From a virus (lineage: Duplodnaviria > Caudoviricetes): a stretch of 64,000 nt of DNA. Position numbers and translations under genes: made by a program. Where the stretch lies: the IMG/VR virus record IMGVR_UViG_3300028591_000161, positions 19,179 through 83,178 of that record; one strand, 5' to 3'. How positions within the stretch are numbered: the stretch's first letter is position 1; each line of letters starts with the position of its first letter. The notes beneath the pieces were generated by a model that made no database searches, had not been told where the DNA came from, and worked only from the letters and a program-made list of their open reading frames with translations. Below are positions 18,863-60,487 of this stretch, piece by piece.

Positions 18863-21800
18863 TTAATAAATTCCGTAAATACGGATGATACCAACCTTTG
18901 CATTGCTTGCATGTGTAAACACAATCGTGTTGTCGTCTTTCCATTGCACAAGCATTCTTGTTGCACTGGATGAACCTGTATTTGATGGGTTATATCCTTC
19001 ACCGGCATAATATCCAGGATTCGATGAACTAATCGCTGCATTGTAATTTGATTTCGATTTCACGTATTCAAGCGGTACAAGGAAATTGTAATTTGTCGCA
19101 TTCGTGTTTGATGACGTCCAAGTTGAATTCTGGATGCATACATACACGACTTTCCAGTTTGTAAATAGATTGGTAACACTACATTGCGCGGATGTCGTGG
19201 ATGAAGATGATGCTTCATATAACAATGATTGCCCTGAAGCTTTGCGAATCATGATGTTTCCATTTTCATTTGGCAAATATAATGTTCGATTTTCGCCAGA
19301 AACATTCGACATGATTTGTGAATAATATGCACCTGCACCACATATTCTACAATAACCACGCTTATTACCAGCGGTGCCGGTTGGTATAGTATTACCCAAT
19401 TCAATCAAACCATATCCAGCGGTACTTGACGTACCTTCGACCGTTCGATACTTTAAACCATCATTCTTCAATGGATCCACACCAATTAAATCTGAATCTG
19501 ATTGTGCCATGAATGGAATCTGATATGTCGTTGCTGAAGCAGGATTAGTATTTTTTGGATGGATAATATCAGCATAGTCCATGGTCAATGCGGTTCCTTC
19601 GTATGTCGACGAACCGTTACCGGCATTATTGATTACTTCCCATCCAGAGTTTAGTGAGTAGCCATTTAATCCAGCTTCGAAAATAGGTGCGACAGAAATA
19701 GATTCATATCTGGCTTTTTCACATTTCACCCAAATTTGAAATGTAACATGGGTTGGTGATGTTGTTGATACATTTGTTGTTACAACAACTTTGTCATGAA
19801 TCTGTCCATCTGTTACGAGCCATTTAACGGTTGATCCATTTATGACTCCCGTTGATCCGTTTGCATTAATGACTACATATAATATACCAATACCTGTATG
19901 CGATGTATAGTTTGCTGATACGATAAAAGTCGTCGCTCTGTAGGTATTTGCAGTTGTGGAAGTGAATTCAGCAACTTTTGCCCAACAATTTGTTGCATAT
20001 GCGGTATTCGAATTATAAAACCAACCAGAGCGGTGTTTTAATTGCCATGCAAATGATGTTGTTGCAATCTTTGTAGATGAATCCGCATTACGCGGTTTTA
20101 CATCCTGTGTCACACCTGTTGTAGATCCATCGATGGTTCCGATTAACTTTCCAGATATGTTTGTGAAGTATCCATAGTTCCATCGTTTTGATGCAGCACC
20201 GACTGAGTACATATCATCATTCCACGGACGTAATGTTCCGGCTGAAGACCAGATAAACGTCTTTAAGTTTGTACCTTCTTCATGCGTTGTATCGGTAAGT
20301 GAATTCGCTCCTGATACGAAGTACACATCACTGTCTGCACCAATCATAACAGATTCTGAACCATATGTCATGGCGGAACTATACGGTGTTGTATCAGCAT
20401 CGGTAACAGTCGTACGCAGATTGTGTCCAGCTTCACCACCACCAATGATTGTCAATCCACCGCTGCCTTCACCGATACACAAACAGTATCCATATCGATC
20501 ATATGGGTACAGACCAATGAAAGCACCTTCGAATGTACCCGAGGTGCCGCTTGCGGACCATGGGTACCTGTATCGAAGCAGCCATCCATGTAAATCATTA
20601 TCGACAATCGAGTGTTCCCCGTATGCAAATTCATACCATTGATTATTGTAAGCCTTTCCAATAAAGAAATATCCCATCATATTGTTGGCTGATGTTTCTG
20701 CATTGCCGAACATTCCATATGAACCGAGGGCTGTGCCAGAAAAATCATCTTTATAGGCGGTGACAGATCGGCCCCATCCATACAATGAAGAGACTTTGTA
20801 TACTTGACCTGTTGATTTATACTGGACACCTTGCGACTCCGATGCATCGCTGTATATCGATATAATTGCACCGGTATCCATTTTACCACCTGCAAGTGGT
20901 AAATAATCATCAGCCAATGCGAAATCATCAAGATTATATGTCGTTGCATTTGTACCGGTTAGAGAAAAATACCACCGCGGTGAAAGTTCACTTGCAGTTC
21001 GCTGACCACCACCGAATGTAATTTTTTCTGTATCATATGCACTTGACATGAAGCACTTAACATCGCCGCCACCGTACACCAATCCTGCTGAATAATTACC
21101 CGCAAGATATGGCGGCGTTGTTGCAGCTGTATTTCCTCTGATTACATATAACGCATGACCCGAACCAGTGATACCCATTGCTTCCCATGTGGCATCATTC
21201 GATGTTGTCAAGTAATATGTATTACCAGTATGCAGTATGGAATAAATACTGTCATTTGTGTTGGCATCGTTTGGGACAGAAATCAGAACAGATTTATTAC
21301 CGGTTCCCGTAGTGGGATTGTATCCAGTACTGATATATGTTTCACCGATGTGGTCGTGTGTTGCTCGTTGTGATTTTCCAATCCATAGGTTTGAAGTATT
21401 ATATGATATTAATGAAAATTCATAACCATCTGGATTGGTAGAGTCGCCTCGATCCTTGGTGTAAATGTATGAACCTTTTCGATTCATACGGAATATTCCG
21501 TTACTCGGATTAAATGTCAGCAGATTTGATCGGTTTACAGTCTGTGCAGTAGTTCCTGTTTGTGATGCTGTGTAATATGAAAGAAGCAAAGGGACTTCTG
21601 CATTTACGGTTGTTATGTTCTGAGTCACCTTTGTATCAGTTGGAGTCCCTGTTGTCAATACAATATTCCCATTTTCAATAGAAATGTCTGAGATAAAACC
21701 ACCTGAAGATGATCTCGATATTGAAGGTAATGAGAAAACCCATGGTGAAAAATTTTCATACCAGGAGTGAATTTTTCCAAGACCGATTGCCAAATCTTCT

Positions 21801-56822: not shown

Positions 56823-56848
56823 TAATGGGCGGGTCATCCCGCCCATTA
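56823..56848 (+). terminator. Intrinsic terminator
   Basis: TAATGGGCGGG-TCAT-CCCGCCCATTA. Confidence 0.7.
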
Positions 56849-57929: not shown

Positions 57930-58982
57930 ATGTATGCATTTATCGCCGATTTACATCTCGGCGTAAAGTTACCCAAGATCGATTTCGTGAAATCGTTATC
58001 TGATTTTCTCGGAATCATTCAAAACCACAAAGAAGACTGTCATGCAATCTTTGTATGTGGAGATATGTTCGATCATAGATTGTCTGTTGATGATGCCAAG
58101 TTTGCGGCGCAATTCATGGCTGCATTGGTATACAATCATTCCGGACCAAACCATCAGAATATTCCCGTGTACTTCATCGCCGGAACGGATTCACATGATC
58201 TTGACCAGTATCCGATCTTTCTGTCAATGATTGATGAATCCGTTCGCGCGAATATCTTCTATATTGACAAAGCATGCTCGTTGACAGTATTTGGTGACAA
58301 AAAGGTATTATTCCTACCACAAGAATATGGGGATGTGGATTATACAAAACTTTTTGAAGACACATACGACATTATTGTTGGACACGGTCCAATGTCATCT
58401 GAAACTAAGAATCCTTGCAAGTCTGCTAAATACGAGATTGTACATTCGGCAGACTTGCTTGGAAAGATTTCGAAATTATGTGTATTCGGTCATTATCATG
58501 GCTTTACGGATTTCGGAAATAATGTATATTATGCAGGTCCGTGGTTGCGATGGAAGTATGGTGAAGATGAACAACGTGTGTTCTTCTGCTGTGATGACAA
58601 TCTGAAAGTTTTCACAGAACCGAACACCAATGCAATGGAATTCGAAACCATCGAGATCCATAATCCGGAAGAATTACGAGAGCACTTGTCGAAAGAGATT
58701 TCAAATCCGCATCGTTTTGTGGTTCATTTAACACCTGATGAAATGTCTGTCTATAACGGAATCTATCATACGAACAATTCTCCCATGATAAAATTTGTGG
58801 AAGAATACACAATGCCGGAAGATGATTTGGTTCTTACTGTCGATGAGACATTGTCTGCACAAGAAGAAGCAGTTCCCCCTATGACAATTCTGGCGACATA
58901 CATCAAAGACAAATCTGGACTTGATGCATCGGAACAGCTTCAACAATATGAAGCACAAATCAAGAAGGAGGAGAAATCATGA
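57930..58982 (+). CDS. sbcD: SbcD/Mre11-like DNA nuclease subunit
   Basis: FIADLHLG, CGDMFD, AGTDSHD, VGHG, FGHYH, YYAGP; start moved to ATG 57930 after AAGGAG. Confidence 0.85.
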   Translation: MYAFIADLHLGVKLPKIDFVKSLSDFLGIIQNHKEDCHAIFVCGDMFDHRLSVDDAKFAAQFMAALVYNHSGPNHQNIPVYFIAGTDSHDLDQYPIFLSMIDESVRANIFYIDKACSLTVFGDKKVLFLPQEYGDVDYTKLFEDTYDIIVGHGPMSSETKNPCKSAKYEIVHSADLLGKISKLCVFGHYHGFTDFGNNVYYAGPWLRWKYGEDEQRVFFCCDDNLKVFTEPNTNAMEFETIEIHNPEELREHLSKEISNPHRFVVHLTPDEMSVYNGIYHTNNSPMIKFVEEYTMPEDDLVLTVDETLSAQEEAVPPMTILATYIKDKSGLDASEQLQQYEAQIKKEEKS

Positions 58983-59197
58983 ATGAAAATGATTTTCCGT
59001 GGATGCCTGATAGGGTATCGCCGGAGAAAGCAGCTGTACAGGAACGTATTGAACGGGAAGCTGCTGAAGAACGGGAACGTGAGAAAAAGCGTTCTCGAAT
59101 AAAATTCTGGATTTTGGTCATCGGCGTAATCAGTGTCATCAGTCTGATGGCATTATGGCTGACGATTGAAATTATAAGAAAAATCGCAAACGGTTGA
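58979..59197 (+). CDS. Small single-TM membrane protein (72 aa)
   Basis: RBS AAGGAGGAG; charged N-terminus then FWILVIGVISVISLMALWL. Confidence 0.75.
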   Translation: MNENDFPWMPDRVSPEKAAVQERIEREAAEEREREKKRSRIKFWILVIGVISVISLMALWLTIEIIRKIANG

Positions 59198-59208
59198 GGA
59201 GGAAACAC

Positions 59209-59568
59209 ATGAAAAAGAAAGGCTTCACACTTATCGAACTGATCGTGGTTATTGCGATCATTGCTGTCATCGGGGTTATCCTGTTGCCAGGGATCCTGAA
59301 AGTCTGTAATAAACAACGTGTAACAGTCACTGTTACAGACAAGGGTACAAAACGCAAGGGAGACGATGATGACAAGTATCTCGTATATACAGACGTCACA
59401 ACATATGAGATCACCGATTCTCTTTTCAAATGGAGATGGGATTCGTCGGATCTTTATGGCTCGATCGAAGTCGGAAAGACATACGAGATTGAAATTGGCG
59501 GATACCGGATTCCGCTTCTGTCGACATATCAGAATATCTATTCCGTAAGGGAGGTCACTCCTGAATGA
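59209..59568 (+). CDS. Prepilin-type (class III signal) protein with DUF1523-like C-terminal domain
   Basis: MKKKG/FTLIELIVVIAIIAVIGVILLPG; then VTVTDK...KYLVYTD...EITDSLF...SSDLYG.IEVGKTY...GYRIPLLS.YQNI; RBS GAGGAGG. Confidence 0.85.
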   Translation: MKKKGFTLIELIVVIAIIAVIGVILLPGILKVCNKQRVTVTVTDKGTKRKGDDDDKYLVYTDVTTYEITDSLFKWRWDSSDLYGSIEVGKTYEIEIGGYRIPLLSTYQNIYSVREVTPE

Positions 59569-59735
59569 ATGAGGAATATTCAGAAGGAATACTGGCAATG
59601 ATCGGACTGATCACAATCTGTGCGGTTGTGATCTATTTGATACTCAAAGTCTGTATCAAGTTTGTCAAGTTTCTGAAAAAGAAACAGTCTGAACGTTTAC
59701 AAATTGAGGAGGATTGTAATGTCAAAGAAGATTGA
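59565..59735 (+). CDS. Small single-TM membrane protein (56 aa, not in ORF track)
   Basis: ATGA overlap with the pilin-like gene; GILAMIGLITICAVVIYLILKVC then KFVKFLKKK; RBS GGGAGG. Confidence 0.65.
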   Translation: MNEEYSEGILAMIGLITICAVVIYLILKVCIKFVKFLKKKQSERLQIEEDCNVKED

Positions 59736-60456
59736 TGAAACATATAATGAGCCTGGAAAGATTATGTTTTTCCGGGGTGATTACCATTTCCTGTCAAATT
59801 TCTACCCGTGCAAAATAACCGACTTTGAAGGCAACGTGTTCGAATGCGCGGAAGCAATGTTTCAGTCATATAAAACGACTGATCCAGAAGAGCGTAAGAA
59901 ATTCACAAAGATGAACGGCAAGGAATCAAAAGCTGCTGGTCGTAAAGTGAAGCTTCGTGATGACTGGGAGAAGATCAAACGGTATGTGATGTGGTATGTT
60001 GTATATCAAAAGTTTTCACAAGATAAAGATCTCGGAAGACTTTTGATTCAGACTGGTCGGGCTGATATCATTGAAGGAAACAACTGGAATGATCAGTACT
60101 GGGGTCGTTGCTTCAAAAAGATCCCGTATAAAGATGGTGACCGAGAAGTACTGGTCGGTCAGAATAATCTCGGATCCATTCTGATGCAAGTACGTGATGT
60201 GATTGTCAGCAGACAGCTTCCATCATATACAAATGGTTGGAATTGGGATTATGATGATGAAGAAGATGATCGTCCTGTGAAACGATCAATACAACAACGG
60301 AATCACCGAAACGATCTCTCTCCATCAATCACATATATATGTGATCGGCGTCCGCTCGATGAATATCTCTCGATGCTGAAAGACCTTCGGGCGATGATAC
60401 TTGCCCAGACCGAATCTGAGACATCTGAGACAGTTGATGAGAATCCGGCTGAATAA
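59719..60456 (+). CDS. NADAR (YbiA-like) hydrolase with acidic C-terminal extension
   Basis: FLSNFYP, AEAMFQSYK, GRKVKLRDDWE, QKFSQ, IEGNNWNDQYWG, GQNNLGSILMQVR; RBS GAGGAGG before ATG 59719. Confidence 0.92.
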   Translation: MSKKIDETYNEPGKIMFFRGDYHFLSNFYPCKITDFEGNVFECAEAMFQSYKTTDPEERKKFTKMNGKESKAAGRKVKLRDDWEKIKRYVMWYVVYQKFSQDKDLGRLLIQTGRADIIEGNNWNDQYWGRCFKKIPYKDGDREVLVGQNNLGSILMQVRDVIVSRQLPSYTNGWNWDYDDEEDDRPVKRSIQQRNHRNDLSPSITYICDRRPLDEYLSMLKDLRAMILAQTESETSETVDENPAE

Positions 60457-60461
60457 ATTAT

Positions 60462-60487
60462 GAATGGTGGGCTTCGGCCCACCATTC
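60462..60487 (+). terminator. Intrinsic terminator with UUCG tetraloop
   Basis: GAATGGTGGGC-TTCG-GCCCACCATTC. Confidence 0.75.

Follow-up and report, generated by a model that had tools for sequence, protein, structure and literature searches.

The 64,000-nucleotide stretch of DNA analysed here (the window) corresponds to positions 19,179 to 83,178 of the IMG/VR virus record IMGVR_UViG_3300028591_000161 (Duplodnaviria; Caudoviricetes). It contains a gene of 119 codons, hereafter the OB gene, whose product joins a complete prepilin-type (class III) signal to an OB-fold conserved in phages. The signal of the OB protein is genuine, yet the protein stands outside every pilin family. The explanation considered moderately probable is an exchange of anchors: the product would be an envelope OB protein of a jumbo phage, provided with an exchangeable anchor, matured by a host peptidase of the PilD/ComC type and directed at a target on the outer face of the membrane. 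The elements of the gene are the following:

59209 to 59568, plus strand: the OB gene, 119 codons, with its ATG at 59209 and its TGA at 59566-59568 (open-reading-frame list and sequence).
59196 to 59202, plus strand: ribosome-binding site GAGGAGG, 6 nucleotides 5' of the ATG, read from the sequence.
59209 to 59223, plus strand: leader peptide MKKKG, with the predicted prepilin-peptidase cleavage between codons 5 and 6 (PF07963, TIGR02532).
59224 to 59289, plus strand: pilin-type alpha1-N helix (from the sequence; helix 8-32 in the structural model).
59314 to 59559, plus strand: OB-fold ectodomain, residues 36-117 (alignment A1, AlphaFold2 model, fold matches and phrog_301).

A pilin-type signal on a phage OB-fold

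Residues 1-27 of the precursor, which starts MKKKG-FTLIELIVV (the hyphen marks the predicted cleavage), comprise a basic leader of five residues, Gly-1, Phe+1, Thr+2 and Glu+5. The hydrophobic run is 21 residues long and a Pro occupies mature position 22, the site of the conserved kink proline in type IVa pilins; Glu5 of pilins matters for assembly rather than for cleavage. The initial annotation, made from the letters of the DNA, had stated that MKKKG-FTLIE fits the prepilin pattern and had named a TIGR02532 match as a check, and both are borne out by these residues and by the profile scores: 32.9 bits for PF07963 (N_methyl) against a cut-off of 21.2, with an E-value of 4e-8, and 32.2 bits for TIGR02532 against a cut-off of 16.3. 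Hence the class III signal lies far above chance level. Nothing except the small size of the reading frame would favour its being no gene at all, or the motif being a chance occurrence within a hydrophobic stretch. Given the strong ribosome-binding site (GAGGAGG overlaps the TGA stop, 59195-59197, of a 72-codon gene upstream), the 291 homologues, the ectodomain residues conserved in alignment A1, the high-confidence fold model and the E-value of the motif, that explanation is ruled out for practical purposes.

The likeness to pilins ends with the signal. All the named equivalog models of pilins and pseudopilins align only to residues 1-44 and score far under their cut-offs (ComGC 25.6 against 75, GspG 23.2 against 88.85, PRK10574 29.3 against 138). 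No homology to host pilins was found past the signal, and beyond residue 44 every match belongs to the phage OB family. Some members of that family bear the automatic JGI name 'prepilin-type N-terminal cleavage/methylation domain-containing protein'.

The structure of the OB protein was modelled with AlphaFold2 from alignment A1, which holds 60 sequences. The model (pLDDT 91.1) consists of a single helix, residues 8-32, and then, at residues 36-116, a barrel of five strands that includes one short helix. It is devoid of the alpha1-C segment and of a pilin head, whereas a typical pilin has an alpha1 helix of about 50 residues packed on a beta-sheet head. The fold matches found by VIA-align are OB-folds with Z-scores of 7-9.5, among them baculovirus LEF-3 (9.5), PriB (9.1), single-stranded DNA-binding proteins and the B subunits of AB5 toxins (about 8). 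These generic matches do not tell DNA-binding from sugar-binding types, and the ligand is not given by the fold class. Matches to family members in BFVD and the ESM Atlas reached TM-scores of 0.7-0.8, and those in a library of viral structures are uncharacterised proteins of Lactococcus, Gordonia, Streptomyces, Sulfitobacter and Vibrio phages, built of a transmembrane (TM) helix plus a barrel. When the PDB sequences were searched with a profile built from alignment A1, nothing matched at E ≤ 1, nor did Foldseek find anything in the PDB at E ≤ 0.001. Pilin structures were absent from the Foldseek and VIA-align matches save for a generic OB match to PilY2 (Z 7.8), a result that does not by itself exclude the pilin fold. 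The residues of the ectodomain that are invariant in the family are polar and aromatic (K45, D70, S79, S80, D81, Y83, Y92, G98, R100, Y107 and N109). Predicted structures from Fadolivirus, Pyramimonas orientalis virus and Indivirus match the entire model, TM helix plus OB-fold, with TM-scores of 0.56-0.76 at 14-22% identity; these giant eukaryotic viruses may share the common fold only.

Residues 11-117 match positions 16-128 of the 130 in phrog_301, annotated as 'secreted protein' (E 2.5e-28, 99.7 bits). The domain had been described at the outset as DUF1523-like, and this holds as a remote kinship: 22 of the 60 aligned relatives match PF07509 (DUF1523) at E ≤ 0.01 (best E 2.9e-6), and PF07509 occurs in 16% of the members of the cluster of structural neighbours in the ESM Atlas. 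The protein itself stays below the threshold of that family (15.9 bits against 23; E 0.0087, over profile positions 116-143 of 176 only), and is a remote relative of DUF1523, not a member by Pfam's rule. The phage family to which it belongs is large. A word-index search returned 291 homologues at E ≤ 1e-3, with identities of up to 92%, and an exhaustive profile search returned 3,343 clusters (50% identity) at E ≤ 1e-3. In tblastn, 483 records of isolated phages match the ectodomain only; their hosts include Vibrio, Staphylococcus, Bacillus, Mycobacterium, Microbacterium and Lactococcus.

The phrog_301/DUF1523 proteins Theia gp42, Waterfoul gp49 and 268TH002 gp66 and the reading frames of Lactococcus phages P078 and P162 have the OB-fold, the invariant residues, the size and an N-terminal anchor in common with the OB protein. 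Moreover, in Mycobacterium phage Theia and Bacillus phage 268TH002 the gene adjoins that of ribonucleotide reductase, a setting of replication and nucleotide metabolism like that in the present phage. They differ in the anchor, which in their case is a plain TM helix or lipoprotein signal and in the protein of this phage a full class III signal. A single phenotype has been published for the family, the strong toxicity of overexpressed Waterfoul gp49 (DUF1523) in Mycobacterium smegmatis (PMC9339283). Two members, P0121 (214 residues) and P0122 (198 residues), carry two tandem OB ectodomains behind a single signal or anchor. A distinct branch, with the motif TVCDK or TVCGK, is frequent in Saccharibacteria (TM7) bins (L031-L047), where it may belong to prophages or to phage contigs binned together with the bacteria; none of its members has a class III signal, despite TM7 bacteria being rich in pilins.

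Exchangeable anchors and a probable gene split

The N-termini of the family were assigned to four classes, namely intact class III (Gly-1 and Glu+5), Ala-1 with Glu+5, E5D, and no motif, with these results:

121 near relatives, the query included: intact class III in 22, Ala-1 with Glu+5 in 8, E5D in 1, no motif in 90.
142 further cluster representatives: intact class III in 3 (4 with P0158), Ala-1 with Glu+5 in 1, E5D in 0, no motif in the rest.
35 loci in bacterial assemblies: class III in 0, Ala-1 in 0, E5D in 0, no motif in 35.

In P0158 the called start lies too far upstream and masks the class III motif. The 35 bacterial loci, none of them with class III, come from Clostridia, Bacillus, Lacrimispora, Saccharibacteria, Microbacterium and Marinobacter. 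The initial annotation had given an ordinary TM anchor as usual in the relatives, which agrees with the absence of the motif from 90 of the 121 near relatives and 138 of the 142 further representatives. The survey of homologues that it proposed recovers the intact form in 22 of the former and 3-4 of the latter. A scan of IMG/VR with the window protein returned plain-anchor relatives of Bacillus type and unrelated MKKKGFTL proteins, and did not return the close jumbo relatives.

Judged from these N-termini, the anchors of the family are interchangeable, with a plain TM helix in most members, a lipobox in some and a class III signal in a minority. Theia gp42 has a classical lipoprotein signal with the lipobox LSSC. 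All eight Ala-1 proteins also have a lipobox (VGGC or similar), and plain relatives keep the lipobox alone. The group of P0033 (L002:5737-6105 and L003:6946-7314) starts with MRKAFTLIE, has Ala-1 and carries a VGGC lipobox about 25 residues in; by its sequence, this signal is a hybrid or transitional form between class III and lipoprotein export. In alignment A1 the class III helix takes the place of the TM helix in register, no alpha1-C being added, and the spacing to the OB-fold is that of the TM-anchored relatives.

Since the lipobox and the class III anchors both fix the domain outside the cytoplasm, the OB-fold is placed there; the plain anchors, with their positive-inside charge distribution, and the long cytoplasmic tails of the long forms of the family agree with this. 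This would be the first firm statement of topology for the large phrog_301/DUF1523-like family. With an extracytoplasmic OB-fold, the target would therefore lie in the envelope and not in the DNA machinery that is encoded around the OB gene. A membrane tether for replicating DNA, similar to phi29 p16.7, was also considered and is ruled out by the class III and lipoprotein anchors, which place the domain outside the cytoplasm.

The gene that precedes the OB gene bears on the origin of the arrangement:

58979 to 59197, plus strand: gene of 72 codons encoding a charged cytoplasmic tail with PWMP, one TM helix and a C-terminal IIRKIAN; kept in six relatives.

In these six relatives the 72-residue protein is 79-100% identical, the changes being mainly in the TM helix. 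An identical protein, P0263, is encoded on a contig of 228 kb. The gene order of the window, shared by contig L011, is an SbcD-like gene, the gene of 72-73 residues (L011:4768-4989), the OB gene, a small TM gene and a NADAR gene. In L009 an SbcD-like gene (58% identity) and a small TM gene (42%) flank a single gene of 162 residues (L009:5001-5489), and its product, P0124, has a charged tail of 50 residues with PWMP, a TM helix and then the OB-fold, the region in which it shares 58% identity with the window protein. The 72-residue protein is built like this long form, with its PWMP tail, charged helix and TM helix, and its IIRKIAN resembles the juxtamembrane I-[IL]-K-[VA]-x-N of the family. Scored against the long forms, it shows a weak similarity that nevertheless exceeds segment-wise shuffling: 5 of 2000 shuffles reached the score obtained with the long form P0128 and 37 of 2000 that obtained with P0124. 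The word index gave no fused form of the 72-residue protein among longer proteins; P0124 and P0128 came from the OB profile search. By sequence comparison, the 72-codon gene probably arose when the N-terminal half of an ancestral long-form member of the family became detached. It is inferred that the long-form gene was split and that its OB half gained the class III start; the reverse event, in which the two genes would have fused in L009, is also possible.

Proposed maturation and role of the OB protein

In the favoured course of events, an ancestral long form (cytoplasmic tail, TM helix, OB-fold) would have been split and its OB half re-equipped with a complete class III signal similar to that of type IVa pilins. 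The precursor would insert in a Sec-dependent manner, N-in/C-out, and a host prepilin peptidase of the PilD/ComC type would cut off MKKKG and N-methylate Phe1. Maturation would depend on such a host enzyme because the signal is intact and the DNA at hand encodes no pilus machinery of its own. The absence of pilus ATPase, platform and peptidase genes, stated earlier for the window, extends to the whole 83-kb record, about 31% of the genome by CheckV, in which no match was found to peptidase A24 (PF01478), the T2SSE ATPase (PF00437) or the T2SSF platform (PF00482); neither does the record hold a second N_methyl gene. The mature protein of 114 residues would be kept in the membrane by its pilin-type alpha1-N helix, with the OB-fold about 10 residues above the membrane, matching its TM- and lipid-anchored relatives. 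This OB-fold of 85 residues, the constant part of the family, would thus be exposed on the external side of the cytoplasmic membrane.

The job of the OB-fold would be that of the family, by analogy an envelope-directed takeover function or one of the superinfection-exclusion type, acting against an incoming phage or a component of the wall or membrane. Ltp of Streptococcus thermophilus phage TP-J34, Llp of T5, Imm and Sp of T4 and lactococcal Sie2009 are small superinfection-exclusion proteins of the envelope, expressed early or from prophages and anchored by lipid or TM segments at the outer face of the cytoplasmic membrane. The OB protein would be like them in location and timing only, and no kinship to them appeared among its Pfam, PHROG or PDB matches.

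Several points weigh against this explanation. Cleavage and localisation are predictions from the sequence. The host prepilin peptidase is assumed, from phage relatives of Bacillota type and a Bacillota-like pilin consensus. The direction of the change, split or fusion, relies on a weak motif match. The function favoured for the family, superinfection exclusion or another takeover role at the interface of membrane and wall, is a guess by analogy. The signal is conserved far better than ordinary anchors are, which is hard to square with a neutral anchor. At ectodomain identities of 40-60%, the anchor (22 positions) is 42-45% identical in class III pairs versus 19-20% in plain pairs, a comparison that is partly circular, as Gly-1 and Glu+5 are fixed by the motif selecting the set. 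Among 24 class III members, Gly-1, Thr+2 and Glu+5 are present in all and Ile+4 in 23; only Thr+2 and Ile+4 are informative, because the filter allowed alternatives at these two positions and fixed the others. On this comparison the class III signal is under constraint where it is present, and its conservation at 40-50% ectodomain identity, Thr+2, Ile+4 and Pro22 included, suggests pilin-specific selection beyond anchoring.

The relatives of the protein show how the signal recurs and decays. At least four phage backbones that are unrelated to one another have the intact form; they are represented by the jumbo lineage, by a phage encoding rIIB and a methylase (L002, L003), by an SPbeta-like contig with YorF, YorH and YopX (L004), and by L005. 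Gly-1 is replaced by Asp or Ser in the close jumbo relatives P0003 and P0009, with Glu+5 retained, and P0009 keeps the gene order of the window, that is, the split form, despite this loss; P0008 has E5D, P0035 has E5Q and P0039 is without the Gly. Because Gly-1 has been lost from these close relatives of the same gene order, P0003 and P0009, the core function seems not to require processing of the pilin type. The ectodomain tree (90 columns) is poorly resolved, with 58 of 114 branches open. The class III trait changed at least twice by well-supported branches and about 10-12 times by parsimony, and gains and losses are indistinguishable on this tree.

The initial annotation had interpreted the protein as a decoy pilin. 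After cleavage, the type IV pilus or competence pseudopilus of the host would take it up through alpha1-N, and it would cap, terminate or decorate the filament; in a variant, it would titrate the peptidase or the platform. The outcome would be a block of pilus-dependent phages or of DNA uptake, or display of the OB-fold past the wall. The complete alpha1-N, with leader, Gly-1, Phe1, Glu5 and Pro22, the strong conservation of the motif, its recurrence in at least four backbones and the many other IMG/VR phage contigs with small proteins starting MKKKGFTL are in favour of this proposal. However, the OB-fold begins about 10 residues past the hydrophobic helix, and with alpha1-C and the head missing from the model, capping or termination of a filament is the most that the protein could achieve. 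The fold searches brought up no pilin beyond the generic PilY2 match, and the conserved and selected part is the ectodomain, which serves behind TM and lipid anchors in thousands of phages. In addition, close relatives have lost Gly-1, and the 83-kb record is devoid of pilus genes. From the original proposal, dependence on the host peptidase and the presence of the signal on an ordinarily TM-anchored family are retained, and incorporation into pili, for a protein with alpha1-N only and with relatives devoid of Gly-1, is rather unlikely.

The decoy proposal has precedents. The prophage protein P-FimU of F10-like Pseudomonas phages replaces the FimU of the host in pili and blocks pilus-dependent phages (PMC12952977, Cell Rep 2026). 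The same work describes PilA-like proteins in non-temperate phages, one family being truncated to about 60 residues, and suggests a role in exclusion. Hence the earlier statement that no lytic-phage system of this kind had been described is outdated as a concept. P-FimU and the truncated PilA proteins resemble the OB protein in being phage-encoded class III signals unaccompanied by pilus machinery of the phage. They differ in their origin and build: P-FimU has a pilin fold, is truly homologous to a minor pilin of the host and was shown to be incorporated, and the truncated PilA forms are headless stubs, whereas here the signal, known from the DNA, is grafted on an unrelated, phage-specific OB-fold family.

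Grafted domains are also known from cells. According to the InterPro survey of Raynaud et al. (2021, PMC8179133), modular type IV pilins carrying them are widespread in bacteria, with 264 architectures. In those described there, such as PilB and PilC of Streptococcus sanguinis, the class III signal is followed by a non-pilin module, as in the OB protein. They belong to cellular pilus loci, however, and retain a small but complete pilin module, made of alpha1 and a beta-sheet, after the signal and ahead of the extra domain, in contrast to the viral protein with its alpha1-N only. DUF1523 was not found in the available part of the supplement to that study, and the literature search gave no paper joining a class III signal to a phrog_301/DUF1523-like domain.

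Phage pilin mimicry is thus a concept already in print, and what is new here is that a conserved envelope domain of phages bears a full pilin signal. The value of the case comes less from a new principle than from the natural series of anchors and the documented split. The same ectodomain stands behind TM, lipoprotein and class III anchors, the last both intact and decayed, and the gene order is in some cases almost the same; these forms are natural controls, and the series makes the benefit of a pilin signal to the phage directly testable. A bolder idea, to which similarly low probability is given as to the decoy pilin, is that several unrelated phages independently gave the OB ectodomain a full pilin alpha1-N, and that the filament machine of the host takes it up, so that the filament is poisoned, with superinfection exclusion or a block of DNA uptake as the result, or the OB-fold displayed through the Gram-positive wall. 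If true, the virus would be employing the host's type IV filament machine to deliver cargo that is not a pilin.

Slightly less probable still is that the signal is an unprocessed relic, a pilin-like start captured by recombination that now serves as a mere signal-anchor, remains uncleaved because the host peptidase ignores it or because the host has none, and drifts towards an ordinary TM helix. Degenerate forms are indeed common in the relatives (Asp or Ser at -1, E5D, E5Q, loss of Gly, Ala-1 plus lipobox), and the family tolerates any anchor. All the diagnostic positions are intact in this phage, though, and the motif is near-identical in P0113, P0013 and P0014 despite ectodomain identities of 40-50%, where drift predicts otherwise.

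Phage context and neighbouring genes

The record carries split genes for a multisubunit RNA polymerase, two pieces of DNA polymerase, a topoisomerase II, a helicase and an endolysin. The nearest isolates for the large RNA-polymerase subunit are jumbo phages of Staphylococcus, Listeria and Bacillus, at about 30% identity, and close relatives of the OB gene lie on contigs of 277-279 kb (P0004, P0009). The source is a jumbo phage of lytic type related to AR9/PBS1-type phages, and its hosts are probably bacteria of Gram-positive type. The surroundings of the OB gene include:

56823 to 56848, plus strand: terminator-like hairpin of 11 bp, 7 of them GC, before the transcription unit of the OB gene (consensus scan only).
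57930 to 58982, plus strand: SbcD/Mre11-like nuclease gene, a conserved neighbour on the left by which the synteny is anchored (phrog_100, E 3e-23; 58% identity to L009:3938-5005).
59565 to 59735, plus strand: gene of 56 codons for a single-TM protein, its start overlapping the OB stop (ATGA); syntenic in related jumbo phages.
59719 to 60456, plus strand: NADAR-domain gene, which is conserved as the neighbour on the right and closes the apparent operon (PF08719, 94.2 bits against 35.1).
60462 to 60487, strand not assigned: palindromic GC-rich hairpin of 11 bp just 3' of the NADAR gene, the likely end of the unit (consensus scan only).

The unit between the hairpins also holds a deoxyribosyltransferase-like gene in addition to the SbcD-like nuclease and NADAR genes. 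The OB gene belongs to a replication and takeover module and not to structural operons, and its position among genes for replication and nucleases makes early or middle expression likely. With its ribosome-binding site overlapping the preceding stop and its own stop overlapping the next start, it is closely packed within a run of genes of one direction. The NADAR gene is found at the equivalent position in the P0004 and P0009 contigs, which have genes of 76-77 residues in place of the 56-codon TM gene; the latter is 42% identical (E 6e-13) to the gene at the same position in L009. As read from its overlapping ATGA, the 56-codon gene is translationally coupled to the OB gene, and by synteny the three small membrane proteins form a conserved trio. 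A lysis role of the holin or spanin type, to which the three adjacent small TM genes could point, was considered and is unsupported: the endolysin lies 56 kb away, and elsewhere the family is found in replication modules. PADLOC gave no match for the OB protein or for either of its small TM neighbours.

Small proteins of 81-153 residues, unrelated to the OB family, combine an MKKKGFTL start with short beta-rich domains on other IMG/VR contigs: L055:2586-2831 (a contig of 258 kb), L069:3001-3318 (169 kb), L070:3001-3369 (147 kb) and one on L064 (548 kb). Judging by such sequences, it seems to be common for small non-pilin domains of big phages to carry class III signals. The NADAR protein has a weak match of T4 gp30.3 type and matches PDC-M42C in PADLOC, and it may be a reverser of ADP-ribosylation.

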